Assembly: GCA_973895155.1 (NCBI GenBank)
Contig: OZ316891.1
Span: forward strand, 6,543,708-6,607,707
Length of the DNA stretch: 64,000 nucleotides
Source of the DNA: Marsupella aquatica
Taxonomy: Eukaryota; Plantae; Marchantiophyta
Direction of reading: 5' to 3'
The translations under genes and the position numbers were made by a program. Shown one piece after another: positions 765 to 37,453 of the stretch. The notes beneath the pieces were generated by a model. The model saw only the letters and a program-made list of their open reading frames with translations. It ran no database searches and was not told where the DNA came from. Position 1 is the stretch's first letter. Every line of letters begins with the position of its first letter.

Positions 765-847
765 TTTGTAGGTTCTTCAAACAGAGAACTTCTCCATTTT
801 CTCTATCACTCAAGGTATTCCTTTTTTCGTGTCAAATTGGTTTGGAA

Positions 848-1390
848 TGGCCGTCCCTCAAAACCTTGTCTTTGCAAGGTTAGCGACCATATTTGAGAAC
901 GAGAAGAAGAAACAAATTGAGCAGAAACGGAGCCGAAGGGAATCCGGACTACTTTTGGATGGACTTCCTGATGAGATTGTTGAAACGTTCATATGGCCTA
1001 TTTTGAAAGTTTCTTGCATCGAGGACGAATTTGATTCTTCCAAGATCTCGGCTGAAGAAAGACTCAGCCGATTAAAAGAAATGGTTTGGCTGGGATCCTC
1101 CTCAAAAAAAATGGAACCAGCTTGTAGTTTGTACACGAGTATGGGGTCTCCTTCGACTAGCACGAAGCCAGTTTGAGGGATTAAATGAATTGCTTGATAG
1201 CGTTCCCCATGGAGACCCACTTCAGAATGTTCATCTCGCAAACTTTTTTAGGATGGAAACTTTGAATCTTCCCCCAATCGATTTCCTTGGTTTGTTTTCG
1301 ACATCAGAACTAAGTCAATTTCAAGGGGACTGGCTAAATCTAGAGAAAGATCAACAAGCCAAACTAGTGGAAATATATGGACAAACTTGA
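848..1390 (+). pseudogene. F-box-like protein, frameshifted at a poly-A run near 1105-1111
   Basis: LLDGLPDEIVETFIWPIL, then after a 1-nt shift SKKWNQLV...RVW, continuing in frame into the 1190-1390 ORF; matches the F-box LP.E...S+.W..L pattern. Confidence 0.5.
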
Positions 1391-1883: not shown

Positions 1884-2286
1884 ATGAATCCGAAGTGGGA
1901 TACCGCGTATCCCACTTCGCATTCACTTTGGCCGAATTCTTGTTTGAGAAGAAAAATGCAATGAGATGTCGGGGATGAATATGAAGTGGAATACCGCGTA
2001 TCCCACTTCGCATTCAACATGCAAATCTTCAAAGTTATTGAAATCCTCAGCGCAACTAAGGGGATGAATCCAAAGTGGGATACACAGTATCCCACTTCGG
2101 ATTCATCTCCAAGATTTCATGCTTTCTTAATGAATAGCCAGAATAGGGGCGGTTCGATACGAAGTGGGATACCGTGTATCCCACTTCGCATTCATCCCCA
2201 AGAATTCATACTTTTTATATGAAAGAGCCGGAATAGGATGTGTTGGATACAAAGTGGGATACCGCGTATCCCATCTCGCATTCACA
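1884..2286. repeat. Five ~40-bp palindromes GAAT.C.AAGTGGGATAC-N3-GTATCCCACTT.G.ATTC at ~90-bp spacing, upstream of the MTase gene
   Basis: For example tgaatccgaagtgggatac cgc gtatcccacttcgcattca at about 1885-1925; others at about 1976, 2063, 2155 and 2245. Confidence 0.9.
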
Positions 2287-2341
2287 TATTGGATTATGGA
2301 CTTGTTGCTCAAGTGGACCATATTAGGCTTGAAATTCTAAC

Positions 2342-5290
2342 ATGTGGTTTGTTTTGCGCAGGATGTCGAACAAGTCAAGTGCTTTGGGTTCCTCTGGCTC
2401 TTCCCGACAAGCCATCATTGATGAAATCTGGAAAAAGGATCTCTATGTTGAGGAGAAATTCCTCAAGAACAAGTGGTATTTGTGTGATGCTCGTGAGCTT
2501 GATCTTCATCAAGCATATGCAGGCCCAGCATTATGGTTGATTGTCGTGAAGGGTAAAGAGCATTGCCACCAAGGATTGGTGATCGACACGGCCGAGTCGG
2601 ACATCGTTGATACAAAAACCAAGAAAGTTAAGAGGGTACCAATGTTTCTTTGCATTGGTGTTGATAAGACCTTCTCTGTGTTGGTTCTCAACTATGAGAA
2701 ACTTGATCGAGTCTCCATGAATGCATTTCCGGAAGACCCGATCACTCAGCTCGTGGCGGAGGCGCCTGATGTGGATGCATTTTTGTTTTGGTGCTTGAAT
2801 TATGTCTTCACGTCGTGGAAGGTGGTGCGGGACTTCATCAACATTGTGTATCGCTTAGTGGTTGGAGAAGACTTTAAGGGTCCCGAAAGAACTCCATTGA
2901 AGTTGAAGATACATAGGCCAACTAATCCGTCTGGGACAGTGGAGGGTTCGGAGACAACCACAACAAAAGAGCAGGCAGTTTCCGAGCCAAAGAACAAGAA
3001 GAAAGCACTAGCAACATCTGTTGGAAAATCTGGGGAAGGATCAGGTGCCACTATCTCCGAAGATCCTCTGAAAAAGAAGACTAAGTTGGATCGACGAGAA
3101 ATCCAAAAGAGAGTAGTGTCAATAGCTCCCCCTTCGCCTTTGAGATCGGTAGATGAGATTCCTCCAACTTCACAAGGTGGGCCATCCGTTGCATCGAAGG
3201 GGAAGGGTCCGATGATTCCAGGGGTTGGGAAAACATTGAAGAAGCACGAACCAATTTTCCAGATATTATTTAGATCAGGAAAAGTTTGGGACCTCCAAGA
3301 CCAGATCTTTGACATGTGGAACAGATTTGAGATCAAGGGGCAGACCAAACAAAAATCCCCTGTGAAGATAGTGAAGAAAGGGTCCAAGTTAAAGGCCGTG
3401 CCCGTCGTGAAACCTTTGAACAAGCTAGCAAATGGGCTAGCATTGACACCTTGGAGAGCGATCCAAGGGATTGAGCACGACCGGTTTTTGGAATCCCTTC
3501 TCCTTCAAGTCAAGGATCGAATGATCAGTCTAGAGCAAATGGCCAAAGAGGCCGAAAGTTACAAGAAGCTTGTGAAGATCAGTAAACTATTTGTGCAATT
3601 GTCTGGCCAACCAGACTAGGCAACTTGTAAACAGATGTTTCCCAAAGAGACGCAGTCTGCGGAGCTCGAAAGATGGAGTGGAAAACTCTTGGATGTGGTA
3701 AGTTGATTTTGTGTTTTCAAAGGTTGAATTCAAAACTGGATACGCGTATCCCATTTGGGATTCACAATCGATTCTGGCTCCATTCAAGTTGTTTCTTTCT
3801 TTTTGTCTGGGTGGAATCCGAAATGGGATACGGGGTATCCCATTTCGGATTCGACCCCAGGTTTTGGCTGTGTTAGCGTTGTTCCTTTGATTTTCCCTAG
3901 GTGGAATCCGAAATGGGATACCCCGTATCCCGTTTGGCATTCAACCCCGGGTTTTGGCTGTGTATGCGTTGTTCCTTTGAGTTTCCCTAGGTGGAATCCC
4001 AAATGGGATACCCCGTATCCCATTCGGGATTCAAGTTGGAGTTTGAGGGTTAGAAGCATGATTCACCAGATTTATTTAGTCGAATACCGAATGGGAGACT
4101 CGGTATCCCTCTTGGTATTCAGTGCATTAACTCTGGTGCCTTGATGTTTTATAGTTGAAAGCCTTCTCGAAGAAGAAGAACAAAATGGTTCAAGTGTCAA
4201 ATGATGGCGAGGAGACTGTTGAGGAGGAGCTTAGTTCCGATGTTATCCCCCTTGGTTTTAAGAATATGGTTCAGGAAGCTATTGAGAATTATAATCGTCG
4301 GATTGGTATCGATACTGTTCAAGCGGAATCAAGCGACCACCGTTGGAAAAATTCTGATGGAAATTTCATCAACTACACTCTCCACTGTGGAGATGTCCGG
4401 GCGCTTGATAGGTTCTTGGAGAAACGGCCTTACACACTTGCAGTCGCCGACATTCCTTATGGATTCAATGCCATCGGCTCTGAGAATGATGAAGTTCCAT
4501 TTTCAGAGAAAGATATTATTGATACATGGTGAAATGTTTTGCTAAGGTGACTACTTCACCTATGTGGAGGTTTGTTGTTATTCATTCGCTGCAACAAAGT
4601 GTCTCCGTTTTGAATGCTTTGGGAAAGACTTGCAACGCTGGAGTTGAGGCAGGAATTTGGGAGAAGCCAAATGTACATGCACACCCCTCCGGGAATAGGC
4701 TAGCTTGGGCGTTTGAGAACTGGTCCATTGGATATTATAATGAAGGTGGTATCAGGACCAGGGAAATGTACAATTTCGAGCATGATGAAAAAAGAATCAA
4801 CATCATCAAGGTTCCTTGTGTTACCAAAAAATGTGTAACACCCTTAGGGGAAGTAGTGAATCCGTATCAGAAGCCGATAGCCCTCACAGACTGGTTCATC
4901 AAGCATTTTAGTGAAGAAGGAGATTGGATTGTTGATTTATGCGCTGAAAGTGGGTCCACTTCGTGTGCGGCTTTGTTGGCAAAGCGACATGTTACAGCTT
5001 TGGAGTTGAGTGCTCAACAAATAGACTGTATCTAGACTCGACTAGTCACGCTGGATGAATCATGGGACTTGAATGAGGAAGCAATTGAGGAGGGTACAGG
5101 GCCGATGAGTTTTGAGATACAACCACCGATTGGTGGTATGACAAGCACTCTCACCACCGGACCTTGCATCATTACAACCACGGCTGAGAATGATGATGAT
5201 GTAGATGAAGACGAGGAGCAGGAGGAAGAGGAAGCAGAAGCTCCGGCATTAGATCTTGGCTCATTCCTCGAGGTGTCGAGATTATTTTGA
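2342..5290 (+). pseudogene. Two-exon gene: uncharacterised N-terminal region fused to a beta-class N4C/N6A DNA methyltransferase (exons 2342-3697, 4155-5290)
   Basis: Phase-0 intron GTAAGT 3698..ATAG 4154. Motifs LHCGD, LAVADIPYG (motif IV, DPPY-like), NPYQKPIAL, EEGDWIVDLCAESGSTSCAA (motif I) in beta order. Lesions: TAG 3617, frameshift near 4525, TAG 5033. Confidence 0.85.
3725..4122. repeat. Five GGGATAC-N3-GTATCCC palindromes (~90-bp period) filling the MTase intron
   Basis: gaatccgaaatgggatac ggg gtatcccatttcggattc at about 3814-3852; copies at about 3730, 3904, 3994 and 4082. Confidence 0.9.
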
Positions 5291-6714
5291 GATTAGATTG
5301 CTGCAAATGAGATTTCCCCAAATTGTATATGAACTTCTGGAAATATTCCAAGAGATTTAGATGTTCTTATGTGACAATAATGTCCTTGCAGGATCCACCA
5401 AAGGAGGTTATTGAATTGAAAAGTGTTCTTCATAGATTTTTGCACAATCCTTTTGTTGGTCATCTCCTCAATCAAGAAACATTGGAACAACTTGAACCCG
5501 ACCAATATTTGGGTGACGAAATTATGGAATTTTACCCAGAGTCCCAAACAGAAGAACAGGGAGATCTTGCTCCAATGGTAAACACGTTATCCTCCTTTTT
5601 TTATCCTTGGATGGCATCAAGGATTGAAAAAGAACCAACACATGAATCCCTTAAAGAATCTTTACAGAAAATGCGAGGTTATTACAAGCCACCATTTTCC
5701 AAGATTGAGGTTATTCTTATGCCAATTCACATGAGTGGCCATTGGAGTTTGGTTGTCATATGTTTGGATCGATCTCAATCTTTGATCCAAATGTATCATC
5801 TAGACTCACTTGCTGGTCGATCTACATGAAACTCATGTAATTGAATCGGCACTGAAAAGGTGAAAGACTTAACTTTATCTTCTAGTACTATTTGTTTTTC
5901 AAATGAGATTATTTAATTCATGTGATTATAAATGCTACTTTAACTAAGGAATCACTTTCAATGACTTGCAGATATTTCACAATAGAATGGGAACTATTTT
6001 TTGGAAAAGTGCCATTGGGTGTTATGGAGATGTGGAATCCAAAGGTATGTAATTTGTTTCATTTTTAATTCTTTTTATCTCTCTATTCATTAAAACTAGA
6101 AAATTCTTTGATCTTTGGACATTTGGGCACTAAAATACATATTTTTGGGCACAAGAATTGTACATTTGGGTAGTGAAAGTTGTACATTTGGGCACCATTT
6201 AATGTACATTTGGGGAATCAAGATTGTACATTGGGGAAAAATAAATATTAATTTGGATTCTAAAGAAAAACATTTGGGTGATAGAAATATAAAATGTGTT
6301 GGATAATAAATAAAACATTCATCTAGTCTAATAATTAAGATATAAGCTTGGATATGATCTCTACCCTAATCTTATGCTTTGATCATTAATAGGGTTCTAA
6401 ATTCATGTTATTCTAGTTGCTTGGAACTCTCCACACTAAAAGCAATTCTACACAAGAATCCAATATCAAATTACTCAAGAATCCAATATCAAATTACTCA
6501 AGAATCCATCAAGAACAATTTTACTAGAGCCTTCATAATAGGCCACACAAGAATCCAATATCAAATTACTCAAGAATCCATCAAGAACAAGTTTAAACTG
6601 AGACTCTAGATGAATTCAGAAGTGCATAAACCCCCTATGCAGTCATTTTCTACACATCAAATATGGAAAGAAATGCATGTACAATGCTTCACATGAGAAC
6701 TATCTAGTTAAACA

Positions 6715-8705
6715 TGTGGGAGAAAGAATAACAATGGGATGGGCGACCTCTCACTTGAAGCTATGCACCAAATTTGGCGCTCCAAATTTTGCTAGTTTCC
6801 ATATACTCCTCATGTAGTGTTGGCCATCAACGTCAATAGTAGTGGGTGCAGCAGCTAAACCAAATATTTGGAGCTCCACATTGTGCTAGTTTTTAAAATA
6901 ATATAACTGTCACTATTGCTGGCCAAAATTGCACCATCCCCAAGGCAACCTTAACTCCAAAACTGCACCATCCTAGAGGCAACCTTAACTCTCCATCAAT
7001 GACCAACAAACCTCTTTTCCTCACAAAAGTACCTACCCAAAGAGACAACAGTTGTTGGCTCTAGATGATCTTGAGGTAAAATAGTGATCCTCAATAACCA
7101 AGGAAATCATTCTAAAGATTCTCAACTATCACTAAACCCTTACACAAATGTAAAATAAGTTGTTAGCTATAGTTGATCTTGAAGGAAAATTGAGACTTGT
7201 AATTGCCTCAAAAAATCATTATATAGCAATTTCTCAAAAATCATCAAGAGACCTCAATTAATGAAAAGCTTACACAATTGTTGGCTCTTGATGATCTTGA
7301 GGTAAAATCAAGGCCCCTAAATTTCCAAGGAAACTGCTCTAAAGATGCTTCACTATCAAGAAATATATATCCAAAGCTTACACAATTGTTGGCTCTAGAT
7401 GATCTCGAGGTAAAATAAAGGCCTCTAAGCTTCCAAGGAAACGGTTGTGAAGATGCTTCACTATCAAGAAATACGTATGTGTGGGAGAAGGAATAGCAAT
7501 GGGATGGATGAACTCTCACTTGAAGCTATGCACCAAATTTGGAGCTCCAAATCTTCCTAGTTTCCATATACTCCTTACGTAGTGTTGGCCATCAACATCG
7601 ATACTAGTGGGTGCAGTGGCTGGACAAAATATTTGGGGCTCTACGGCTCCACGTCTCGCTAGTTTTCAAATACAACTATCACTATCACTAGCCAAAATTG
7701 CACCATCCCAAAGGCAACGTCAACTCCAAAATTGCACCATCCCAGAGGCAACCTTAACTCTCCATCAATGACCAACGAACCTCTTCTCCTCACAAAAGTA
7801 CCTACCCAAAGAGACAACAATTGTTGGCTCTAGATGATCTTGAGGTAATAGTGATCCTCAATAACCAAGGAAATCATTCTAAAGATTCTCAACTATCACT
7901 AAACCCTTATACAAATGTAAAATAAGTTGTTAGCTATAGTTGATCTTGAGGGAAAATTGAGACTTGTAATTGCCTCAAAAAATCATTGTAGCAATTTCTA
8001 ATCATCAAGAGACCCAATGAAAAGCTTACACAATTGTTGGCTCTAGATGATCTCGAGGTAAAATCAAGGCCCCTAAATTTCCAAGGAAACTGCTCTGAAG
8101 ATGCTTCACTATCAAGAAATACGTATCCAAAGCTTACACAATTGTTGGCTCTAGATGATCTCAAGGTAAAATAACGGTCTCTAAACTTCCAAGGAAACGG
8201 TTGTGAAGATGCTTCACTGTAAAAAAATACGTATCCAAAGCTTACACAATTGTTGGCTCTAGATGATCTCGCGCAAGGCAAAATGAAGGCCCCTAAACTT
8301 CCAAGGAAACCAATGTAAAGATGTTTCACTATCAAGAAATATGTATCCAAAGCTTACACAATTGTTGGCTCTAGATGATCTCGAGCCTGTAACACATGGG
8401 CCTCTAACTTGAAAGAAAACCGTTGTGAAGATGCTTCACTATCAAAAAATATGTATCCAAAGCTTACACAATTGTTGGCTCTAGATGATCTTGAGGCAAA
8501 ATAAAGGTCCCTAAGCTTCCAAGGAAACCGCTGTGAAGATGCTTCACTGTCAAGAAATATGTATCCAAAGCTTACACAATTGTTGGCTCTAGATGATCTC
8601 AAAGTAAAATGGGGACTCTAACTACCACAAAGATCACTACGAATGCATCCCTCACCCTAAACAAACCCTCGCCAAAGCTACAATAAACTCTTGGCTCTAG
8701 ATTAT
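6715..8705. repeat. ~765-bp tandem duplication (6715/7480) running into a ~109-bp tandem array with core GCTTACACAATTGTTGGCTCTAGATGATCTCGAG
   Basis: Core at about 7268, 7376, 8024, 8132, 8241, 8352, 8462 and 8570. Confidence 0.9.
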
Positions 8706-9459
8706 CTAGCTAGAGATAAACTAGATAATTGCTATAGAAATTGGTAGGGTTATGGGTTTAGGGTTTTCTGCCCCCAAAACCTGGCCTGATCTATCCTTAA
8801 CCAAAGCTCAGACCAATAGAAATATTAGCAAGGAGGAGCTCAAGAGACTTGGAGAGAGGGAGAGCGAGAGGAAGAGCAAGAGGAACAGAGAACAACATGA
8901 CAACAAAAATGAAACTAGTAAAATGATCCTCGCAACTGGGAACAAAGGATTATATGCCACCGACTGACTCACGAGAGGGCCCAACAATCTGCGTACGGAT
9001 TTGTGTACGGATTGCTTTAACTGCACACCAAGGGCATACGGGTTGCATTAAATGCTTTATCATACCTGACACACTTATGCCTCTCTCATACTTGTATCTA
9101 CCTAGTGTTGCCTTTGGACATGACATACGGTGCGTTGAGGAGATTTGAATTCCGATCATTTGCATTTTTATCTTTCCTCTTTCTTGCAAGAGCTCCTCCC
9201 TTCTTGCTCTTGCTTTGAGATCTTGGTTGTAGCCTCTAGATCTTAGTTTTAGCTTGGGTCGAGATCTATGTGCTAGCCTCAAGATCTTAGTTTTAGCTTG
9301 GGTTGAGATCTGTGGGCTAGCCTCGAGATCAATATGGTAGCCACATGGTTTTAGTGCTAGACTATAGGGTCAAGATCGGAGTCGAATCAGTTGTCACCAC
9401 TCATGATCGACCACGTGTCATCCATCAATTGCTTGTTGCGATGTCCACTCGGAGCACTA

Positions 9460-12400
9460 GGAGACTCTAGATCATCTTGAGCTTCTTGTCTTGACTTTGG
9501 TTTTATAGTGTAGAATATTGAAGCACTTGGAGGCTCTAGATCGAGCCTCTTGCATGTCTTCATTTTGGTTTAAGAGTGCAAAAATTGAAGCGCTTGGAGG
9601 CTCTAGATCATCTCGAGCCTCTTGTCTTGACTTTGGTTTCATAGGGTAGAAAATTGAAGTGCTCGAAGACTCTAGATCATCTCAAGCCTCTTGTCTTGAC
9701 TTTGCTTTTATAATGTAGAAAATTGTAGCACTTGGAGGCTCTAGATCACCTTCAGCCTCTTGTTCTGCCTTTTATTTTAGAGTGCAGAAAATTAAAGTGC
9801 TCGGAGGCTCTAGATCATCTCAAGCCTATTGTCTTGACTTTGGTTTTAGAGTCCAAAAACTTCAAGCGCTCGGAGGCTCTAGATCATCTCGAGCCTCTTG
9901 TCTTGACTTTGGTTTTAGAGTGCACAAAATTGAAGTGCTTGGAGGCTCTCTAGATCATCTTGAGCCTCTTGTCCTTAGTTTGGTTTTACAATGTAGAAAA
10001 TTTCTTGGAGGCTCTAGATCATCTCGAGCCTCTTGTCCTTAGTTTTGTTTTACAGTGTAGAAAACTTCTTGGAGGCTCTAGATCATCTCGAGCCTCTTGT
10101 CCTAACTTTGGTTTTAGGGTGCAAAAAATTGAAGCGCTTGGAGGCCCTAGATCATCTCGAGCCTCTTGTCCTTAGTTTTGTTTTACAGCGTAGAAAACTT
10201 CTTGGAGGCCTCTAGATCATCTCGAGCCTCTTGTCCTAACTTTGATTTTAGGGTGCAAAAAATTGAAACGCTTGGAGGCTCTAGATCATCTCGAGCCTCT
10301 TGTCTTGACTTTGGTTTTAGAGTGCACAAAATTGAAGCGCTTGGAGGCTCTCTAGATCATCTCAAGCTTCTTGTCCTTAGTTTTGTTTTACAATGCAGAA
10401 AACTTCTTGGAGGCTCTAGAACATCTCGAGCCTCTTGTCCTTAGTTTTGTTTTACAGTGTAGAAAACTTCTTGGAGGCTCTAGATCATCTCGAGCCTCTT
10501 GTCCTAACTTTGGTTTTAGGGTGCAGAAAATTGAATCGCTCGGAGGCTCTAGATCATCTCGAGCCTCTTGTCCTTAGTTTGGTTTTATAGTGTAGAAAAC
10601 TTCTTGGACGCTCTAGATCATCTCGAGCCTCTTGTCCTGACTTTGGGTTTAGGGTGCAGAAAATTGAAGCGCTCAGAGGCTCTAGATCATCTTGAGCCTC
10701 TTGTCCTGACTTTGGTTTATAGTGTAGAAAATTTCTTGGAGGCTCAGATCATCTCGAGCCTCTTGTCCTTAGTTTGGTTTTCTAGTGTAGAAAACTTCTT
10801 GGAGGCTCTAGATCATCTCGAGCCTCTTGTCCTGACTTTGGTTTTAGAGTGCAAAAAGTTGAAGCGCTCGGAGGCTCTAGATCATCTTGAGCCTTTTGTC
10901 CTTAGTTTTGTTTTACAATGTTGAAAACTGCGTGGAGACTCAAGATCATCTTAAGCCTCTTGTCTTGACTTTGGTTTTAGAGTGCAGAAAATTGAAGCCC
11001 TCATAGGCTCTAGATCATCTCGAGCCTCTTGTCTCGACTTTGGTTTTAGAGTGCAGAAAATTAAACTGCTCTGAGGCTCTAGATCATCTCGAGCCTCTTG
11101 TCCTGCCTTTGGTTTGAAAGTGCACAAAATTAAAATGCTTGGAGTCTCTAGATCATCTCGAGACTCTTGTCCTGACTTTAGTTTTAGAGTGCAGACAATT
11201 AAAGTCCTCGGAGGATCTAGATCATCTTGAGCCTCTTGTCTTGACTTTGGTTTTAGAGTCCAAAAACTTCAAGCGCTCGGAGTCTCTAGATCATCTCAAG
11301 CCTCTTGTGCTGACTTTGGTTTTAGAGTGCACAAAATTGAAGCGCTTTTAGATGCAGCCTGTGGGAGGGAGCCTGTGGGAGTGGCGCAGCTTTTTGTCTT
11401 GCACCAGATTCTCTGGAGGCTCTGGATTGGGAGAAACACTCACATGTTTCAGACGGGGGGGGGAGACGTGTGTTTGACCTGGGACTTGTCCTGTCGGAGG
11501 CAGTGGAGAACTTATTCGCTACTGGTCGGCGTTGCCCCCATGGTAGGAGGTGCACTCGCCTGCTATGGGCCAAATCATGTATTGATGGGCTTTGCAGGAG
11601 CTGGCTCGATGGTGGGGGGACCAGTTTCACTTCCGCTGGATGACTCTGATTTTTCTGTGAGGTTGGAACGTTGAGACCAATGAATGTATGGTTCTGGGGG
11701 CAGGGATGCCCTATGGCTGGTTATTAGGTTGTGTGGTCGTCCTCTTTTGCTGTTAGGTATCGCCGGGGAGGTTAATTCCTTGCCTGATGTGGGATTAAGG
11801 TGATTTTTTGAGGTTTGGTCCTCTGTTCTGTCTTGGCTGTCTCCCGTGAATATGATCTGTTTGTGCGCCCTCCCCGTGGGGCTTTTCGCAGGGGAACTGA
11901 AATTTATAAAATGGCTACCATTCCAAGGAAAATTGAAGTGCTTGGAGGCTCTCTAGATCATCTCGAGCCTCTTGTCCTTAGTTTGGTTTTACAGTGTAGA
12001 AAACTTCTGGGAGGCTCTAGATCATCTCGAGCCTCTTGGCCTGACTTTGGTTTTAGAGTGCAAAAAATTGAAGCGCTTGGAGGCTCTAGATCATCTGAAA
12101 CCTCTTGTCCTAACTTTGGTTTTAGAGTGCAAAAAATTGAAGCGCTCGAAGGCTCTAGATCATCTCAAGCCTTTTATCTTGACTTTGGTTTTAGAGTGTA
12201 GAAAATTAAAGCGTTTGGAGGTTCTAGATCATCTCGAGCCTCTTGTCCTGCCTTTGGTTTTAGACTGCACAAAATTAAAGCGCTTGGACCGAGGCTCTAG
12301 ATCATCTTGAGCCTCTTGTCTTGACTTTAGTGTGAGAGTGCATAAAATTGAAGCGATTGGAGGCTCTAGATTGTATAAAGCCTCTTGTCTTGACTTCTGT

Positions 12401-12800
12401 TTTAGAGTGCAAAAAATTGAAATAGTCTAAGGCTCTAGATCATCTCGAGTCTCTTGTCTTGACTTCTGTTTTAGAGTCCAAAAACTTCAAGTGCTCGGAG
12501 GCTCTAGATAGTCTCGAGACTCTTAGCTTGTCCTGACTTTGGTTTTAGACTGTGGAAATTGAAGCGCCTGAAGGCTCTTGATCATCTCAAGCCTCTTGTC
12601 CTAACTTTGGTTTTAGAGTGCTGAAAATTGAAAGCGCTTGGAGGCTCTAGCTCATCTCGAGCTTCTTGTCTTTGACTTTGGTTTTAGAGTGCAAAAAATT
12701 GAAGTGCATGGAGGCTCTAGATCATCTCGAGCCTCTTGTCCTTACTCTGATTTTAGAGTCCTGAAAACTATTAGCACTTGGAGGCTATCGATCATCTGGA
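9460..12800. repeat. ~63-68-bp satellite (roughly 40 units) with quasi-palindromic core GAGGCTC-TAGATCATCTC-GAGCCTC; interrupted at ~11350-11927
   Basis: Continuous ggaggctctagatcatctcgagcctcttgtc units; the ORFs here (EALDHLEPLV repeats) are repeat artefacts. Confidence 0.95.
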
Positions 12801-13834
12801 GTCCAAAAGATTCAAAGGGGTTTTGCTTTAGGTCTTTTGTGGAGCCAAGTTATTATGATAATTGTTGTACCTGTCCTATAAGTTCTGGAATATAGTGTCG
12901 TAGGTGGTGTGCAACCGAGGTATGAAATTTGATTTTTCAAGGTCTGGACTTGCTTGCTCAAATGATTTCTACCAACTAAGAGAGTCATGAGTGTAATATT
13001 TAGTCAAAGATAAACCCTCCATTTGGGTCTAGACTATCTCAACCATCTAAGTATGATAAATATAAGTTCTTACATAGATAGGAGATTAGGGTGGTTGCAA
13101 TCTCTACCCTTAATTAATAAGGACAAATGACCATTCATCACTTGCTACCCTTGACAGTCAAACTACCATATTTACTAGTGTTACTTAGGGTAGAGACGAT
13201 TGACTAAACTGATATAGTGATTCATGTATTTTCAATAATTTTAATTTAATATATTGTATATAGATTGTTATATTCTATTCATTGATATGCTTTTTTAGAC
13301 TATATAATAATAATGATACTATATAGTATAATAATATAACTTTCTATTATATGAATATTAATTAATTATAAATTACTATTTAGTTATTTAATAATTTAGG
13401 TACAAGAAGTGTAATTTTAGACCACAAAAAGTGTACATTTGGCCTACCAAATATATACTTTTGGGGCAAATTTTGTGAAATTTTGGGTAGCAAAATAATA
13501 CTTTTGAGCATCAACTTTTGGACTCTAGAAATTCCAGTTTTAATGAATAGAGTGATTTTTGGGTTCAAAAACATATCTATAAATTGTACTAAAATACACC
13601 ATGTTTTTTATCAGGTGCCACAACAACCAAATACCACAGATTGTGGTTTATTTGTCCTGCACAACATGGATGAAATTAGAGTTCGATGGAATAATTCAAA
13701 ATCTGTATCCGCAGAGTCTTTATTTACAAGAGATTGGTACAACCCCACACAAGCATGTCATCTGCGAAAGGTGATCAGAGATAGAGTTATGAAATTAATG
13801 CATGTATCAGCCTAGTTTAATTAGTAAATGAAAC

Positions 13835-16800
13835 TCAATCTTCTGAAGATACAGAACCTCGCTCTAAAATAGCAGCCTCTATGATCTTCTTTATTTTTGC
13901 TGCTATTTGGTTATTTGTCAAAAGTGCAAAATTGTATGCATATATCGCTATTGACGACAAAACTAGTTCATCTTGATGAAGTCTATTAGATACATTATCT
14001 TTTTCTGGAAAATATTTTCCATCAATTGCAGTCTCAGCACTTGCCTCAGTTGTGTACCACGTGATTTTGATTCTTTTCGGAATGTCTTCTCTTTTTGTCA
14101 AAATCTTTTCGACACCTTTGCCATCCAAAATAACTTGCCTTCTGGATCTTTGTGTGCTGCTACGCATATCATTGACCATTTGTTGTTCACTTCCATATCT
14201 TTGAAATCCCCAAGTTCAGGTTGCTTTCGCCGAGGACCTGAGTACATAATCCTCTGTGGTCCTGCAACTTTATCAACTAGAGTTGGGTCAACATCTTCGG
14301 ACGTCAAAATCTGATTTGTTGACACACCACCAAGTCCACGCCTTTCATTTTGTTGTGGCCAAACCCATTCAAATAACCACTCACCCTCCTCTAAGTGGTT
14401 TTTGATAACATCATTTTGCTTCTCAAAGAATGTCATCCACCATAGTTTATCTTCATCGTCAAAGTAATTGAATCCCTCTTGAATTGCTTTTTGATATTTC
14501 ACCAGAATGGATAATGCACCATTTGAGTCCATCAGATCATCATCTCGTTCAACACCTTTTGCTGACTTTAGTGACATCTGTGCTGCAACCCACATTCTTG
14601 AAGTGGGGATGTAGTTGACAAATGCTACCACGTCTCCCCAATCAGAGGTTGTAGATAGATGTTTCCCATGAAACATGGTCACTTCGTTATCATCTACAAT
14701 GCCTCGCTTGAATCTGAATTGCCTTTGAAAAGTTATGAGGTTGAGATCTCTCAAAACTCGACCTGAAACTCCGTTGTCATTTGGTTGGTCGGTCTCATTC
14801 ACAAATTTTCTGAAGTCTGCAACTTCATCCACAAAAATTACATCTGCTTGAGGAGAATATGCCCATTGTATAATATCCACAAGAGTATCTAAGCGAAATG
14901 CTTTATGCTTGTTTAATCTAGATGAGAACTTGCTAAACATCTTATCTATTTGGTCATGCGTATGACCAACCAACAAAAAACCAACTTTTATCTTGTCAAA
15001 AACCTTTAAATCTACCAACATGTGTAGATAAGCCATCAAGAATTTATTCTTGTTCTCCCTAGTGGTATTATCCAATTGAAGATATAATACCCGTGGCAAT
15101 ATCCCATCCCATGTATTCAAAATATTTTGAATAACATGAATGGTGAGATAATTTGCATCATTGTGGATGTTGGGGTAGGTCAGAAAAACTTTTGCCGCAA
15201 GCTTTCTATTAAAGATAAGACAACCCACAACATGGATAGGGATGAAATATTTCTCATCCATGTTCTTTGGACAACGAATAAAATGTGGTAGCTCAGTTTT
15301 CTTTTGATCCATACTGTCAATACAAATACCCAAATACTTGTTGGGTTCATCATAGCATTTCTTTCGATGCTTTGCCAACTTCATCCTCTCGAGTGATTGT
15401 ACTCTTCAATGCTCCATAAGAGCGTTGATATACTTTCCTGCAATAATACAATCATGTGTAATCAATAAATTATCTATTCATCATTGTGTCTAACTTATCA
15501 CTATCTTACTTAGACACAAATGTGAGGTTACAATGAACTTACTTTTATCTTCTTCTGTCGTTGCTTTGTCTCGAAGAGCCTTGAATTCGGTACATGGACC
15601 ACAAGTGGAAAAACAACTCCTTTTGGGAATCCGCACATTTGAAAACTTCTTCTTCCAAACGCGCAAGAAATAAGAATATGTAACATATTGCTCTTCCCGC
15701 AAGATTGTTTCGGCAAGAAAGATTTCATGAATCTCTTGCTTTGTCCAATTGTTTGGCAAGTGATGAATTTCTTTATGAGGAAGACTATCCATGTTTCTTT
15801 GAAAGAAATCTTTCAACCATTCCACCAAGTTGAGAAATGAAGGTGAGTCTTCCTTACAGAATGTATCTCGTTCAATCCTGGTGAACATGTTTGCATGGAT
15901 TGTAGCCAACCTATTATTCCCTATGGAATATAATTTCTTGAAACCTCCTCTACAAATAGTTTGTCCATTCACACTATATCCACGGGAAGTATTATAATTA
16001 CTCATAATACATCCTCGCAAAAGAATGTTTTTTTGTGAGTGTGAGGGACCAAAATAATACTTACGTTGTTTCCAACATTCTTCTAGACCTAAAGACCTCA
16101 AGCAAAACTTGTCACAACAAGAATACTTAAAAATATCTTTAATTTTTTGTTTTTTCAAGTTCGCATTGATAAGCCTATCTTTTCGAATCATCTGGTCTCT
16201 AATTTTTTTGCTTGGTCTTCTCACCTCTATTCTATCTTGTATTGTGTTGGGAGAATTCACTCCTCCACTAGTTTCCATGGGACTCATTGAACTTAAAACA
16301 AAAGTATCTTGATTTTCTCCGGTATTACTTTCACTCTCTACATTTTCTAAGACTGGTTCGTGAGCACTCTCGCGACCAAGGATCTCTTTAACAATATTTG
16401 AGATTTCAACAGTCCCTATGGCATCCTCTACGACATCGGCTGGTACCTCCGATTCTTCTTCAGATTCTTCTGGAAAAGCAATTGGTACCCGAAGATTTCT
16501 TGTCTGAAATCTTCTACCGATATTCCTTGCTTCTATCGGAGTATCCCCCACTTGTCTCTGAAAGTGTGATCCTTGCCTTGGTGTCTCATCTCGACTAGAG
16601 GGATCATCCTGACCATTGAATAGTCTTTGAACAACCTTCAATTTTCCTTCTAGCCTTGAATTTTCGGGGCAAGTTTGTGGCAACGCACTTTGCAACAATC
16701 TGTGAGGCATTTGATGGACACCTGCAGCATTTGTGACACTTGATCTCCTTCCTCCCTTTTGAAATGGTCGTCCTACCAAAGATCCAGCAACCTCACACTG

Positions 16801-17928
16801 CATTCGAGCCAAAGGGCTTCGAAGCCCAAAGTTGATGTTTGATTGACCACTAGGCGAAATCACCGATGGGAACACGGAATGGGATCCATGGATCCCAACT
16901 CGTATTCGTCCACTTGGACTTCGAAGTGACAGCTGCCCCACTTGTGGTTCTATGGTAGCGCTTGACAATTGACCATTGTGTAAAACAAAGTGGGATCCAC
17001 GGATCCCCTGTCTCATTCCTCCACCCAAAGCGACTAACAAAGTTTGTCCGCTTTGCAATTTGGGCTCAACATTTGGTAAAATTCCAGGAGGGGATACCAA
17101 GTGGGATCCGCGGATCCCCTTCCGCATTCCTCTCCCCGAATCAGCAGGCAATGGTTTTTCGCTTCGCATTTCGGGCTCACCATTTGGTAAAATTCTAGGA
17201 GGGGATACCAAGTGGGATCCACGGATCCCATTTTGCATTCCTCCCACCAAATCAGTAGGCGAAGGTTGCCCGATTTGCAATTCTGGCTCGCCATTTGGCA
17301 AAATTCCAGGAGGGAATACCAAATGGGATCCACGGATCCCACTTGGTATTCCACTAATGGCATTTGGTAGCGAAGGAGATGAAATTGGCAATTCACGCTC
17401 TCCATTCCGCAAACTTCGAGTAGGGATCCCTCTGGGTATTCTTCGTGCGGCTGGCACTTCTAGCACCGTCGAACTTCTCATTCGCTCAAACTGCGATTGC
17501 ACACTAGACAAAGCTATCTGGACTCCAGGAGGACGCGACATTGGGAAAACCAGAGGAGATCTCTTGGCGGGCCTACATAGCAACATTGTTCTTGGCATTA
17601 TAAACCGAGGCCGACGCTTGGGTACATCTGGAGGGGTTCACGGTGAACTAGTCTGACCTAAGGGTATGACAGTGGACTTTCTCCCAAGCAAACGTCGTTT
17701 AAGCGGTTTGCTTGGAGAAACATAATAAGGTGTTGGAGCTCCAACAACACTTCTCCCACACTCGGAATCAGGCCCTGAACTCTCTGAATCTGATGAAAAT
17801 GACATCTCTGGCAAAACTCTTTGTGAGACTGGAAGCTCCTTCATCAAACGAGATGGAATGAATTTTCGAACAACATCTGGCGAAGATGCATCAGAACTAT
17901 AAATAGACTCGTCACCTGAAGACGCCAT
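13835..17928 (-). pseudogene. Sola-like DDE transposase with long low-complexity N-terminus; intron 15438-15542
   Basis: CCDKFC, ICRGGFKKLYSIG, YFLRVWKKKF.NVRIPK..FSTCGPC, CIDSMDQ, LYLQLDNTTRENKN, FLLVGHTHDQIDKMFS; phase-1 GT-AG intron; TGA (from CGA) after the intron and frameshifts near 17620 and 14100. Confidence 0.75.
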
Positions 17929-18900
17929 TGAGATAGTATCAAGGTTCTATAGGAGTAAGGATTCCTATGGGGAGTGGACCGTTCCAGTGACTCCAATCTA
18001 GGAAAATAGAGACTCAATATTTGAGAACCTAAAATGAGTCATAAAAAATGAAGACGGAATCACATGCGAGCTTGTTCTTATATAGTTTTTGGGAAGATGT
18101 CCACGTGGCTTCCATTCATTGGTCCGTACAAATTTTTAAATGTGAACAAAATTGATCTTTGAGAGAAAAGAGTATTCCAAAATTGTTTGTTTCTTGAGTT
18201 GGATCGGACAATGGGATCCATGGATCCCGATTGGTATTCAAACATTGATTTAGCAACGCGGGGGTTTGACAAGGGCAAATTTGGAAGGGTGAATACCAAA
18301 TGGGATCCGTGGATCCCATTTCGTATTCACCCCGACTTTTGGCTTAGCTCTTTTTGGACTTGGGAAATAAAATGGGATCCATGGATCCCTGTTGGTATTC
18401 ATATCTCTAATTTGTTAGATGGAGGGTGGCGGTTGGGAAATAAATGGTCTACAGTATGTCCAACCATCTGCTTGGGTTAACTTAACTGACTGCATTTGTC
18501 GACCATGGTTGCTAGTAAAGTTTATACAGTACGTCGTTTTACCTTTGGTAAATATTCAAATCTAGTTTACTCGGTATGGTAACTTAAGGCCCCAAATGAT
18601 CAACTTAGTGTGTTTTTGTTTGATTTTCCACGGATGAATCTGAAACGGGATACGGCGTATCCCATTTTGGTTTGAATGATTTGCTTGTCAAATGGAGATT
18701 TGTGTTATTGAAGCTTTTCCGGGCGAATTGATTAAGCGCGCGGAAATAGGACTTGAAAATCATTGTTTTATGGGTTTTGTGTTTGACAAATATTTTTGGG
18801 ATCAATTGTTCTAAAATCAAAGATTTTAATGATTTTCCATTTTTTGTCAAAAAGTATCTCAATTTGGAATCGGATGTTGGATCCAATTTTGCATTCATCT
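16875..18900. repeat. GGGATCC-N2-GGATCCC palindromes in the 5' coding part (111-bp period) and upstream of the transposase
   Basis: About 16880, 16991, 17102, 17213, 17324, 18213, 18301 and 18373; a GGGATAC-N3 type again at about 18647. Confidence 0.9.
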
Positions 18901-19019
18901 AAGAATTTGTGTTTTTGATATCAATTTAAGATATTTTTTGCCGTTTTTTGCAAAAATCAAAACACACTTCTCGTTTGGTCGTCACACTTCTCGTTTGGTC
19001 GGTCATCGTGTTTAAGGAG

Positions 19020-19330
19020 TATGTTGATACTCTCATCTTACGCACTTGAGAATGAAAGGCAATGCCTGGTCTTATGGCAAGTGCCCCTTCTTTGTAGGGT
19101 CTAGAAATAGTGTCCAATGCAACATACAAGAGCCTTTTCTTGGCAGTGTCATCACTCCTTCCCCACAACAAAATACAAAAATTATTTTTTTAATCACTTA
19201 TATCCAATCTTCTAGATGCTAAGCAACATAACATGGTACACAGGGATAGCACAAAGAACATGCTCCAGAAGGACCAGCCTACCAAGTTGTGTACTTAAGA
19301 CAATATCCAATTGGTCCAATGTCGCAATCA
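19020..19330 (-). mobile_element. Degenerate L1-type LINE ORF2 fragment
   Basis: Minus-strand peptides GRLVLLEHVLCAIPVYHVM and LWGRSD..KKRLLYVALDTISRPYKEGALAI resemble plant L1 post-RT motifs (GRLVLIKSVL.AIP.Y; FLW...VAW..I..PK.EGGLGI). Confidence 0.65.
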
Positions 19331-19499
19331 TTATCCGCCTCTTGCGCTGGTTGGATGCCATTGCCAATGGGACAGCCCAGGTAAGTGATGACCCCCCCTT
19401 TGCTAGAATGCAACACCCAGTTCTCTGTATCCAATCAGGTCACTTTGAATCATATTAGAGGTCAGTGATAAGATTTATGGATGTTAAGAAGAGCACCAG

Positions 19500-19900
19500 A
19501 GATATGTGTATGACGTTACAAGCAGTATGAAATTTCTCTTCTATGGCATTGAGAAACAGACAAGTGTCATCAGCAACTTAGATGACACTACCATAGGAAG
19601 ACAGAAACTGAAATTTTGTATCAAGCATGAAAATTCATGTTCCATCATATTATCGTGTCATGGGGACTATTTAAATGACTGGAAACCATTGTCATATCAT
19701 CATGTTGGGACCACTTAATTTGGGATTATTGAAATGACTAAAAATCATTGACATGTCGTGGTCATTACAGTCAGCTAGAAATTACTTACTAATGATGGTC
19801 GTCATTTCAGTCTGGTTGGAATGACATAGTTAAACGTGTCATAAAGGGTTAAATTTTGGCTATCATTTTTGTGGTCATTTTGGGTGTTCTCCACAATAGG
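19500..19900. repeat. ATGAC/GTCAT-rich tract, likely a decayed CACTA subterminal region
   Basis: Dense GTCAT/ATGAC motifs like those at 42170-42800. Confidence 0.4.
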
Positions 19901-22027
19901 GAGGTGTTTTATGTTATACAAATCAATGAAAGAGAAATGATATATGTTGCTTTGTCACTGCCTTGTTCCCACAAGAGGGGATGTCCCCGTGAGACCTGTG
20001 GATGATAGAAGAATGAAAGAGGTACCTCAAACTGTACATCACTTTATTGCTTTGTGTATTGGGTCTCCCCAACACTTTGCATAAAAAAACAACCAAATCT
20101 TTTAGAGCAAAATAAATTAACCGAGCTCCACACAGAATCCACAAGTGCCACAACCCTTCAATAAGTCCTACTGCATTATTTCTATGACAATGTTGTAAAT
20201 TAGTAGGTTTCCGGTATCTTGCTGACACCTAGCAAAAACATGTGTTTGGCACGTATTTCACCCAATTAATTGTTTTTAAGAGCATTGCACCTCATAGAAA
20301 TTTATTCTAAATTCATGCAGACTGTCAAGTCTAGGATTTAATCTCCTCCCTTTTCCCGGGCCAGCATATTTTTCCAGCCCAACTTTTTTGGAGTGACACT
20401 TTACTGCACTGGGTGCAATTTTTAAAAATTGAATTATATATGTGCAATTTTAGTTACTACTACTGTATGGATTGTAGGTGGGGAGAGTGCAATTGCAAAA
20501 ATAACTCTCCAAATCAGGTTCTTTTGGCTGTTTAGGGGGGCTTTACAAGACAGTGGGGGCCATTCAGTGTCTCTCCATCCAGAGCAAAGCTGATGGCCAT
20601 TTCCTTACACAAAAGTTAAATGCCTGAGTCAAAATGTGTCAGGTTTGGAAGTAATCAATGCAATTCCCTGAAAATAATCGGCCATTTGCTAAGGGGGCCT
20701 TTACAAGAAAGTTTTTGACAAAAGAAAGCTTGCACACATCAACAAAAGTGACCCGCAAGGGGCCCACGACAAATGACTAGGTTTGGTAATGCTTTTGTTT
20801 GATTGGGGACGTTCATGTAAAGTGAAGTGTGGCCAGTTCCCACATATGGACGGCTAGGATTGCATCTCTCACTTAGGAAAAAAAGGAATCGCTGCCCCAA
20901 ATTCTTGTAAAGCCACCATTAGTGGGTGGCAAGGAGAAAGGTGTAGATGGACTTATTACAGATTCAGTTTGTGGGTGGGGCATTAATGAATCCCAAACGA
21001 AAAACAAGCAGTGACTGCATAGAAATTAGACTCTGTGCGATCTGTGTAGTTCATATATCGATCTCAACTTCAAACGATCTTGAGCGGTTTTTTCTGTTGC
21101 CTGTTCCACCATCAGTCCACAGGTGTACCTGTCGCCATTGCTGCGATGGTGGTTTTTTCTTCGGGCTCCTCTCCCTTTTGGTCTCTCCTCTCGCCCCATG
21201 AAGGCCTTCACTTCACAGTCATCTCCCTGAAGCTCTCAGAAACAAGCAGTAGCACATGTTTTTATGTGGGATCTCTACATGAGAAGGTACCCCGTACTCA
21301 ATTTGCAGGAGAAGCTAGTTCCAACGACGAGTCTGAATCTGACCCCACAAATGGATCGACCAGAGGAGCAGGCACAAAATGATGAGACCCATCACCGACC
21401 GAATGTCCATTCGACTTCCTGGGGTAGAGAATTGGAGTTCAAGAAGTGCGAAGTGATACTTTGAAAAGATGAAAAGCTGGAAAGTGTGGATCCCGTGGAG
21501 TAATTTGTGCGCTGTATTGTTAGCTTGAGGGAGACTCCCGTGCCTTCAAATCAAATTTGTGATTCATGGTCCATTGTTTTACTGGCGGTTGCCGCGGTCT
21601 CATGTCCCTGCCCTGTGGATTCTAGACATACACCTTTCTGGCTCTTAATTGGCTTGTATCGTCAATGCGGGTGTTCTTCTTATGCCTGTCGGTCGGCAGA
21701 TTCTTTGAGAAGGAGAGAAGTAAGGTGGGCCGGCTTGTTTCTCTCTTTTGAGGTAGCTGTGGGTTCTTGGAGCCCAGCCTTGTGAAAGAGATTCAGATGG
21801 ATTACTGCATTGAACTTCCATCAATGATGACTGGGTAGACGGCGCAATGGGTCAAGGTGAAAGATGTATTCAATGCAATGTTGTTGGACGTGAAGTGGTC
21901 ACAGTTTCCGTGGAACATACTTGACCGAGGAGCTCGAAATGGAAGATCATTTGCCAGTGTAACGCTTACCCCAACCAAACCAATGGAGAAGCGCAGCTGT
22001 TGAGGTTTATCTGAAGGCTGAGTAGGC

Positions 22028-22380
22028 ATGGGCTCCAAAGTGGACACGTTTCAGAGGCCAACCTGTTTTAGCCAATTCCTGCCGAAAGGAATGTGGGTCC
22101 TCTTCACTCTTCTCAGCTTAGGGTTTCTGTCGACATTGTCTGGGTTGGAGGAGCAGAAGGCCCCATACAGAATGCAAACGTTGTTCTCGGTGGAGTGCAG
22201 TCCCTACTTTGACTGGCAGACGGTCGGACTGATGCATAGTTTCAGGAAAGCAAAGCAGCCTTGGCCCATCACTCGCTTGCTGAGTTGCACTGACCAAAAG
22301 TTGGAGGAGTACAAGAACCTCGACATTGCTCCCACTCATGTGGTTCCGTCTATGACAGTCCACCCTGTCACAGGAGACAT
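22028..22380 (+). pseudogene. Isolated first exon of a peptidyl-serine alpha-galactosyltransferase (SERGT1-like)
   Basis: Hydrophobic segment then APYRMQTLFSVECSPYFDWQTVGLMHSFRKAKQPWPITRLLSCT...HPVTGD, ending at a GTAAG donor; no later exons recognised. Confidence 0.8.
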
Positions 22381-33500: not shown

Positions 33501-34193
33501 ATCAGGCAAGCAATGTCTGATAAAACTTTTGAGCTAGTCAAGATTGATGGAAAACTCAATCCCGCTGATGCCTTTACCAAGGTGATTCCTTTGGAGAGTT
33601 TCTCAAGACACCGTGCTACTTTGCAGGTTTTGCAGTTGTAGTGCAAGTAGAGTTATTTAGCAATGTGTGACTATTTGTATATGGATTACTCATTCCTGTT
33701 TGGCTACGGCTTAGTTCTAGTTAACCCTTAGTTAACCCTTGTGGTTTTTAGGGGGAGACCTGGTTTGGTGATTGTCTAGAACTTCCCGCTGAGGATTCCA
33801 TATGGTAGCATTTAGTCTAGTCCCCAAGACAAGAGTCAAGGGGGAGTTTGTTAGATATTGCTCTAGCCTTGTGACTCATGAGCTAACCACAGTTAGTCTA
33901 ACTCAGGTTAGGACTAAGCTAATGTTAGCGGTTGTGCTGTTGTGCATATAGCCAGGGCTGATGCCAGACCCTAGGTGGAACTTAGGCTCATTGTTACGGA
34001 GCTAGTTGAGAGATAGGGAGAGCTTGTGCTATGGATGCTTGGTATGGCCGGTCGGCCTAGAGTGCAGTCAAGCTCTTGTGTGTTCCCGTGGACGTAGCCT
34101 CATGTGGAGGTGAACCACGTATCTCTCTGTGTTGACTATTGTGCGTTGGATGGTTCATGGGCTTGCCGTTACGAATGTCGTCTAAGCTCAACA
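27585..34193 (+). mobile_element. Full-length Ty1/copia LTR retrotransposon, decayed
   Basis: 345-bp LTRs 27585-27929 and 33849-34193 (TG..CA, about 12 differences by eye); PBS TGGTATCAGAGC at 27932; PPT before 33849; TSD gcgat/acgat. Confidence 0.97.
29560..33641 (+). pseudogene. Copia gag-pol (gag, CCHC knuckle, protease, integrase, RT, RNase H) with many stops and frameshifts
   Basis: KFEVEKYDG, CWRCGKQGH, WILDSAC, HSDVWGP, TPQQNGVSER, LYGLKQS, IYVDDML, SQSTTEAEY, KHIDVRYHF. Confidence 0.96.
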
Positions 34194-37156: not shown

Positions 37157-37453
37157 CTCGGGGGTCTCACTATATGGGGACCTCCCCATCGCCTGCGACG
37201 TTTTTAGGGCTCGGACCCCCTAAAATGTAAGAAAAAAAAATTATTTTTTAACCCCTATAAAGTTGGAATATTCTTGGAATATTCTAAAAATTGGATTAAA
37301 AAGGCTCTAATGTTCTTATAAGTCTCAAAATTGAATTTGAAAGACCCTATTGTTCTTCTACAAAAATTCTTAAGTCTTCCCTTAGAACCAATAAAATGAC
37401 CCTATCCTTCGTCGCACGTGATATGCCATTTTTGTGGAAGTGAAACCCCCGAG
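37157..37453. mobile_element. 297-bp MITE, copy 2
   Basis: Same TIRs as 468-764; 8-bp TSD ctgttact at 37149-37156 and 37454-37461. Confidence 0.93.

Follow-up and report, generated by a model that had tools for sequence, protein, structure and literature searches.

A decayed beta-class methyltransferase gene in a DNA transposon of the liverwort Marsupella aquatica and its ParB-fused relatives in green plants

Introduction

DNA methylases carried by transposons are already known. Dam-type methylases (DAMs; NPP motif) occur in DIRS and long terminal repeat (LTR) retrotransposons; DAM-bearing LTR elements show more N6-methyladenine (6mA) and higher expression, and the text of the preprint describes DAM-LTRs as absent from Streptophyta and streptophytes as being without abundant genomic 6mA (bioRxiv 10.64898/2026.05.21.726589). 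Here we report on 64,000 nucleotides of the liverwort Marsupella aquatica (assembly GCA_973895155.1, contig OZ316891.1, positions 6,543,708 to 6,607,707 of the forward strand; hereafter the window, in whose own coordinates positions are given), in which a multi-copy DNA transposon with a DUF7869 transposase carries a decayed gene for a beta-class amino-methyltransferase (methylase). As in the DAM retrotransposons, a prokaryote-type and probably adenine-directed methylase is found on a eukaryotic transposable element (TE), whose activity it is proposed to favour. Unlike the DAMs, the plant family belongs to the PF01555 beta class, has a DxPY motif, is fused to ParB and sits in a streptophyte DNA transposon. 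Carriage by a DNA transposon together with the ParB fusion is a new variant of transposon-borne methylases. ParB, N6_N4, Sola and Marchantia are unmentioned in the main text of the DAM preprint.

Fusions of ParB to a methylase in phages and prophages (ParB-terminase loci; PHROG 67/498) likewise have a ParB/sulfiredoxin (Srx) domain N-terminal to a beta-class methylase, to which the plant family adds spliceosomal introns, an extra N-terminal domain, an acidic tail and a eukaryotic transposon context. Several eukaryotic N6A-methylase clades have been traced to phage ParB-terminase loci; the same text places a chlorophyte family whose helix-turn-helix (HTH) is of ParB type in Group 2, the chlorophyte-type Dam, and describes clade 6 as unpermuted, haptophyte and FHA-fused. 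In the passages compared, none of its clades is presented as permuted, ParB-fused and transposon-borne in land plants (Iyer et al., PMC4738411). The bdelloid N4CMT and the Marchantia DN4MT1a/b are likewise beta-class amino-methylases of prokaryotic origin in eukaryotes. These are domesticated host genes with SPPY/TSPPY motifs that make N4-methylcytosine (4mC), N4CMT having a chromodomain, whereas the plant family has DxPY, a ParB fusion and the position of transposon cargo. VANDAL elements are DNA transposons that also have an accessory gene, VANC, and family-specific repeats in their non-coding parts; they differ in their Mutator transposase and tandem-repeat targets, as opposed to the dispersed 16–17-bp palindromes described here. 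VANC causes loss of 5-methylcytosine (5mC) and is not a methylase. The abstract of PMC5735166 describes VANC proteins as binding element-specific non-coding repeats. The recent acquisitions named in passages of PMC12344493 are only N4CMT, DN4MT1 and one fungal 6mA enzyme. No description of a ParB-methylase transposon family was found in the full-text literature searched, a scope outside which lie most subscription journals, Repbase, supplements and the 2025 Cell Marchantia paper.

Results

The methylase gene and its decay

Related loci were obtained from a metagenome scan, in which 56 stretches matched and seven loci (L001–L007) were confirmed. The gene in the window has the following parts.

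2342–3697, plus strand: methylase exon 1, 452 codons, with a premature TAG at 3617–3619; homologous exons in L001–L005.
2426–2914, plus strand: family-specific N-terminal alpha/beta domain (residues 29–191), with a weak and unproven likeness to pleckstrin homology (PH)-superfamily folds; from upstream-exon homology and a predicted model.
3218–3697, plus strand: helices that in relatives come after the ParB/Srx core; from matches to the proteins P0030–P0032.
3698–4154, plus strand: phase-0 GT-AG intron with five palindromes; same-codon splice sites in 5/5 testable loci.
4155–5290, plus strand: exon 2, encoding the beta-class amino-methyltransferase domain and an acidic tail, with a frameshift at about 4523–4526 and TAG at 5033–5035.
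4449–4460, plus strand: motif IV, DIPY; from the sequence and family counts.
4934–4957, plus strand: motif I, DLCAESGS, a degenerate form of the DLC[CSA]G[TS]G of relatives; from family comparison.

Four open reading frame (ORF) pieces sum to 828 codons in two exons, which run from ATG at 2342 through a donor (GTG/GTAAGT at 3698) and an acceptor (TTTTATAG/TTG at 4154/4155) to TGA at 5288–5290. A sequence-only reading of this stretch had joined the four pieces into one protein of about 830 amino acids, with breaks at the coordinates given above, and had placed DIPY before PYQKP (4862–4876) and DLCAESGS; both the joined frame and the motif order were confirmed. The PF01555 search that it proposed returned 29.9 bits for the piece at 4523–5032 (cutoff 26.7; E 6.6e-7), and the other three pieces gave nothing significant in the same Pfam search. 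A search for longer proteins yielded 195 candidates, among which 14 intact proteins were 60–64% identical over 98–99% of this piece. All 14 span the frameshift site and the second stop in an open frame, and several start at a codon that matches the start of exon 2 in the window.

A phase-0 GT donor and CAG acceptor were found at identical codons in all five loci in which both flanks are present (L001–L005 of the seven). The splice at 3698–4154, which the sequence-only reading had supposed for its intron and joined exons, is shown by homology with these loci. Bacterial DNA contamination was rejected because of the conserved spliceosomal introns and the flanking plant elements.

The window copy is a pseudogene with two stops, one frameshift and Glu in place of the first motif-I Gly. 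Among aligned relatives this position holds Gly in 103 of 108 and Glu in 0 of 108, by which the Glu is a private defect of the window copy; the second motif-I Gly is kept in 100 of the 108, and the acidic residue of motif II in 94/94. The catalytic and S-adenosylmethionine-binding motifs are thus broken in the window copy and intact in intact relatives.

A green-plant family with a permuted methylase fold

A profile of the family was searched against 1.84 billion representative proteins. It matched 1203 of them at E ≤ 0.001; 164 reached 1e-10 and 31 reached 1e-30, and the analysis covered the best 150 of the 1203. Organism names were available for eight of 30 proteins looked up. All were green plants: Chara braunii (3), Adiantum nelumboides (2), Ginkgo biloba, Riccia sorocarpa and Cymbomonas tetramitiformis. 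One Chara braunii model (P0037) is a single gene model of 1825 amino acids with two tandem ParB-methylase units. PF01555 scored 30.5–34.8 bits on three intact relatives. Pattern scans, which detect close relatives only, gave 27 stretches in viral contigs and 37 in prokaryote genome contigs, with 0 confirmed relatives in either. Phage methylases were 23–29% identical to the family, and phrog_67 matched it with E 1e-14 to 6e-23.

The structure of one relative, P0050, was modelled from a 68-row alignment (predicted local distance difference test score, pLDDT, 82.6). Its residues 520–767 superposed on CcrM with Z 23.9 (root mean square deviation, rmsd, 2.8; 218 residues aligned) and on M.BceJIV with Z 23.2, and Foldseek ranked CcrM, BceJIV and HpyAVI at the top for the family. 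In the window gene, motif IV is followed by the target loop and then motif I. The model and the permuted order support a beta-class amino-methyltransferase with a permuted Rossmann fold. The sequence-only reading had named the beta class, and both this class and a bacterial or phage type are supported. A core-domain tree was built with FastTree from 57 of 163 aligned domains, the rest having coverage below 75%; because it lacks an outgroup and its deep nodes are weak, it is not used here to argue for any origin or order of transfer.

The N-terminal region and the ParB fusion

The sequence-only reading had described the N-terminal part as an unknown region of about 450 amino acids fused to the methylase. 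The fusion was borne out by one-polypeptide relatives, and the description as unknown held in part. Residues 29–191 had no match in Pfam or PHROG and none in Foldseek at E ≤ 0.001; an atlas lead, Transposase_28 at 0.89, was sub-threshold. Both this segment and residues 293–451 match exons of relatives. Residues 293–451 are 44–50% identical to the exon that precedes the methylase in five loci, and residues 29–191 are 21–26% identical to a separate exon further upstream in L001 and L003. The proposed structure prediction of the N-terminus gave, for residues 29–191, a model from five sequences (pLDDT 69) with a weak likeness to known structures: the best Z was 5.2 and nearly all of the top-50 rows were PH-like. 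The N-terminal domain does not align with the ParB exon.

The 425-codon frame of exon 1 was matched by three proteins, P0030–P0032, along its last 30% only. Compared with the whole window, they matched solely at 3209–3709. A further stretch of about 200 residues, with a GGNH motif, is present in these three proteins, and this ParB core had no match anywhere in the window. A profile of their upstream exon matched 22 further proteins drawn from the methylase search or from its clusters, several of which have both parts in one chain, and the ParB/Srx domain is fused to the methylase in relatives from Chara, Ginkgo and Adiantum. In the P0050 model, residues ~85–236 take a ParB/sulfiredoxin fold (PadC, Z 9.2, rmsd 3.0, 96 aligned; KorB 8.2; SerK 8.1; Srx 7.5). 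The best viral structural matches of P0050 extend over both domains; they include models of 450–520 amino acids with ~670–780 columns aligned, one of them labelled ParB/Sulfiredoxin, and for viral models labelled ParB/Sulfiredoxin or DNA methylase the alignments cover ~600–700 columns. By these models, relatives carry a predicted ParB/Srx-fold domain N-terminal to the methylase. This domain and the palindromes described below were both missed by the sequence-only reading.

Three exons can be inferred in L001 and L003: the N-terminal domain, ParB plus helices, and the methylase. In the window, exon 1 is a single open frame made of the first of these and the rear half of the second, the ParB core being absent.

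In the atlas, residues 40–260 of P0032 resembled DUF3723 (0.96) and ParB_N (0.92), and the nearest clusters included fungal DUF3723 and proteins from sponges and molluscs. These neighbours hint that mobile ParB-like domains of eukaryotes form a larger set. DUF3723 is known as cargo in Starship elements.

The host transposon

The methylase gene lies in an element with these further parts.

5392–13815, plus strand: Ulp1/C48 SUMO-protease (small ubiquitin-like modifier) cargo, three inferred exons (5392–5859, 5972–6044, 13615–13815); PF02902 on the first and last exon, and splice sites.
13835–17928, minus strand: DUF7869 (PF25273) transposase gene, facing the cargo genes tail to tail; a stop near 17640 and a frameshift near 14109 interrupt it.
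18960–19012, strand not assigned: right end of the element, at ~19010–19012, with a duplicated 20-bp subterminal motif; from loose ends, mixed flanks and read depth.

PF25273 matched the transposase with E 4e-44 in the window and E 9e-50 in L006, and the window transposase is 59% identical to the one beside the methylase in L006. In L002, L005 and L006 the DUF7869 transposase likewise stands tail to tail with the methylase, 320–470 bp beyond the methylase stop, and Ulp1 is absent. The repeat stops at ~19012: copies continue from there into mixed flanks, contigs of a second organism match from 19013 only, and read depth is low from 19284 on. Hundreds of variant contigs over the methylase gene and the transposase were found in 4/4 runs compared, of five available; read depth was used for presence and for the repeat end, not as a copy number. 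The element is therefore dispersed and multi-copy with a discrete right end, and the TE-borne state that had been read from the sequence is supported by the transposase in cis. The DUF7869 element may be a Sola-like cut-and-paste transposon. Passages of PMC4455052 gave no superfamily assignment.

In the related loci, synonymous sites were at or near saturation in 9/10 locus pairs, with nonsynonymous divergence (dN) of 0.14–0.30; the remaining pair, L004/L005, had dN 0.058 and synonymous divergence (dS) 0.75. Judged from these rates, the coding exons of the related loci are under strong purifying selection.

The Ulp1 gene is frameshifted near 5826, and its long intron is filled by 108-bp and 69-bp tandem arrays (6715–12900) with a common TCTAGATSATCTCGAG core. 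The arrays are probably a nested non-autonomous element, and no terminal inverted repeat (TIR) was found for the block. Mutator-like elements are known to carry Ulp1 cargo. The end of the methylase frame has a possible phase-0 donor, GAG/GT at 5273, and the first Ulp1 exon (5392) a phase-0 acceptor; splicing between them could yield a methylase-SUMO-protease fusion. The alternative is a Ulp1 start at ATG 5380. A diverged contig in run X2 covers both the methylase and the Ulp1 regions. Upstream of the methylase, a frameshifted ORF at 847–1390 (plus strand) had no Pfam match and may be further transposon cargo; its start, 'LDGLPDEIVETFIWP', resembles an F-box.

Palindromes confined to the element

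Beside those in the methylase intron, a repeat scan found three clusters of palindromes, none with an assigned strand.

1897–2272: five palindromes GGGATAC-N3-GTATCCC, ~90 bp apart, upstream of the methylase gene.
16881–17340: five palindromes GGGATCC-N2-GGATCCC with a spacing of 111 bp, within the 5' portion of the transposase frame.
18213–18663: four palindromes upstream of the transposase.

The 19 palindromes, of 16–17 bp and often with longer arms, all lie within 1897–18663. There were 0 in 19013–64000, and the shuffle mean was below 0.5. Some precede the methylase gene or lie in its intron; the others occupy the transposase frame (5' part) or the sequence upstream of the transposase. A shared pattern that takes in both forms, G[GC]GA[GT][AC]C-N2-3-inverse with one mismatch, occurred 6, 16, 5, 6 and 3 times in L002–L006 (36 in total, in 5/7 loci). 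Outside the inferred exon bounds lay 35 of the 36, and the remaining one lay between two segments of the transposase. A different repeat is present in L001, in 12 non-coding copies, so each family has a repeat variant of its own, as is the case for VANDAL (PMC5735166).

These sites could instead be subterminal binding sites of the transposase, with the methylase acting on transposition intermediates (excised or newly replicated, and hemimethylated) and so timing or directing transposition rather than resisting silencing. The palindromes persist without the ParB core, so the core is not what maintains them and the transposase could be their binder; clusters are found close to the right end and at the promoter of the transposase; and methylases of phage ParB-terminase loci are predicted, in passages of PMC4738411, to act in DNA packaging. 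But methylase introns and the intergenic gap, well away from the ends, are also filled with palindromes, both in the window and in five loci, and we consider this explanation unlikely.

Catalysis and target base

Motif IV is covered by 101 of the 163 aligned sequences. Its first residue is Asp in 96/101, Asn in 2 and Ser in 1, and SPPY occurs in 0/101. The family motif is D-x-P-Y/F, with the second position relaxed to D[IVALF]PY and DPPY in only 9/101. Such relaxation of the Pro-Pro would be in keeping with a family that acts as a scaffold or binds DNA and catalyses little or nothing, like a VANC-type binder on a methylase fold. DIRS methylases are likewise judged inactive in passages of PMC4738411, and the preprint text reports that the retrotransposon DAMs yielded no 6mA in E. 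coli (bioRxiv 10.64898/2026.05.21.726589). The motif-IV Asp, the motif-I glycines and the acidic motif-II residue are conserved across very divergent members, though, which makes a non-catalytic role improbable.

The family profile scored 69.7 bits on M1.HpyAVI, 65 on RsrI, 58.9 on BceJIV, 55.6 on MboIIA and 54.1 on CcrM, all 6mA beta enzymes of solved structure, and 33.6 on N4CMT and 22.9 on PvuII. Motif IV is reported as SPPY in N4CMT and DPPY in bacterial N6A enzymes (PMC8885841; PMC10406627), and TSPPY in Marchantia DN4MT1 (bioRxiv 2021.02.12.428880). From motif and profile, adenine is the probable methylation target of the family.

Under the proposal raised by the sequence-only reading, the family would write 4mC and could be the vehicle or reservoir for domesticated 4mC writers such as DN4MT1 of Marchantia and N4CMT of bdelloids. 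The beta class is the same, a liverwort member exists (Riccia sorocarpa), N4CMT superposes on the model with Z 20.1 and the window palindromes contain GGATCC. Against it stand the Asp of motif IV in place of the SPPY/TSPPY of both enzymes, the 20–45 bits by which N4CMT and PvuII fall below the 6mA enzymes (N4CMT 33.6 against 54–70), an identity of 15–17% to N4CMT, and the description of DN4MT1 without extra domains in passages of PMC8885841. Neither the product nor the link to N4CMT and DN4MT1 fared well by these data, and we regard the proposal as quite improbable.

Neighbouring elements

A separate high-copy repeat with many internal deletion variants lies directly outside the element (20500–21100). 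A 297-bp miniature inverted-repeat transposable element (MITE) is present in two copies (468–764 and 37157–37453) at 99.3% identity; both have 14-bp TIRs, and the perfect 8-bp target-site duplication differs between the two sites. It is recently mobile and, by duplication length, presumably hAT- or P-like. An NB-ARC (STAND) gene with DUF7779 and repeat-like C-terminal exons (23748–27687, plus strand, and 35855–36502) is apparently interrupted by a Copia element, the LTRs of which (27584–27930 and 33848–34194) are 96.5% identical. A CACTA Tnp2 transposase (50903–55384, plus strand) contains PF02992, DUF4218 and DUF4216, and the ORF that precedes it has no Pfam match and is SET-like by eye. Tandem arrays include 26-bp units at 39324–39739 and ~590-bp units with hairpins at 61179–64000.

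Discussion

Taken jointly, the gene structure, the predicted fold, the pseudogene state, the DUF7869 linkage, the ParB/Srx fusion in relatives, the purifying selection in relatives and the confinement of palindromes to the element (non-coding in related loci) are held with high confidence. The annotated gene models in Chara, Ginkgo, Adiantum, Riccia and Cymbomonas would also be expected of a domesticated host DNA or RNA methylase captured by the transposon as a mere passenger, but many divergent and often broken copies, linkage of the same transposase in families 35–40% divergent and purifying selection inside elements make this very improbable.

We tentatively read the methylase as transposon cargo that, in intact elements, may bind the element's own palindromes and write 6mA on element DNA, and give this reading slightly less than even weight. 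The N-terminal half would recognise the palindromes as ParB does parS, a plausible targeting role, and ParB-bearing versions may load at, or spread from, these sites. The 6mA mark would then be local, on the element's own DNA, and could favour the element by keeping it unsilenced, expressed or competent to transpose. The window copy has no in-frame ParB core, so spreading would be either not essential to it or supplied in trans.

Together with the inactivity of the DAMs in E. coli, several observations weigh against this reading. The window copy is dead, and the intact proteins seen are those of relatives. Its palindromes are present without a ParB core, and five of them fall inside the transposase's open frame; the shared pattern, devised once the sequences were in view, has 0 copies in L001 and L007. 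The ParB motif of relatives is GGxH[GST], without Arg, and HTH_ParB matched with E 0.05 only; the canonical ParB/Srx motif has Arg after GGxH. As to the target base, structural Z scores tie N4CMT (20.1) and PvuII (20.0) with RsrI and HpyAVI, and some beta enzymes with an Asp motif, such as M.BamHI, make 4mC. As to the element, L001–L007 share one contig prefix and so represent one data set, not seven independent cases, and the transposase is linked in 3/7 of them, the other four contigs ending within ~300–500 bp. No left end, TIR or target-site duplication was found when 1–1900 was compared with 18600–24000, a second comparison being at chance level; the left end may lie before base 1 of the window. 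The observed/expected CpG ratio was 0.62–0.68 in the window exons, beside 0.21 in nearby Copia and 0.30 in CACTA coding sequence. This milder depletion is compatible with partial protection and also with age.

It appears reasonably probable that the family arose, early in green plants, out of a phage fusion of ParB with a methylase. A fuller scenario is doubtful at present: such a fusion would have been captured early by green-plant DNA transposons and would have run since as a self-contained parS/ParB-like system that loads at the element's palindromes, spreads and writes 6mA to counter 5mC silencing. Land plants, which are reported to be without abundant 6mA, would thereby have an adenine mark specific to the transposon, the sliding domain having been dropped in the Marsupella element and a SUMO protease perhaps spliced on.

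Enzyme-made 6mA in land plants is disputed, and the family offers a candidate writer together with candidate sites, the palindromes. It also names genomes in which to look for 6mA (Chara, Riccia, Adiantum and Ginkgo), which can be tested with existing long-read data. With this family, methylases carried by transposons are known beyond retroelements, in DNA transposons, and in a second enzyme class, and a bacterial-style ParB/palindrome logic is suggested in a plant element. If 6mA self-marking is true, it would be a possible counter to silencing in plants reported to be without the usual adenine-methylation enzyme, and a 6mA writer guided by sequence and able to work in plant chromatin would be a useful tool.

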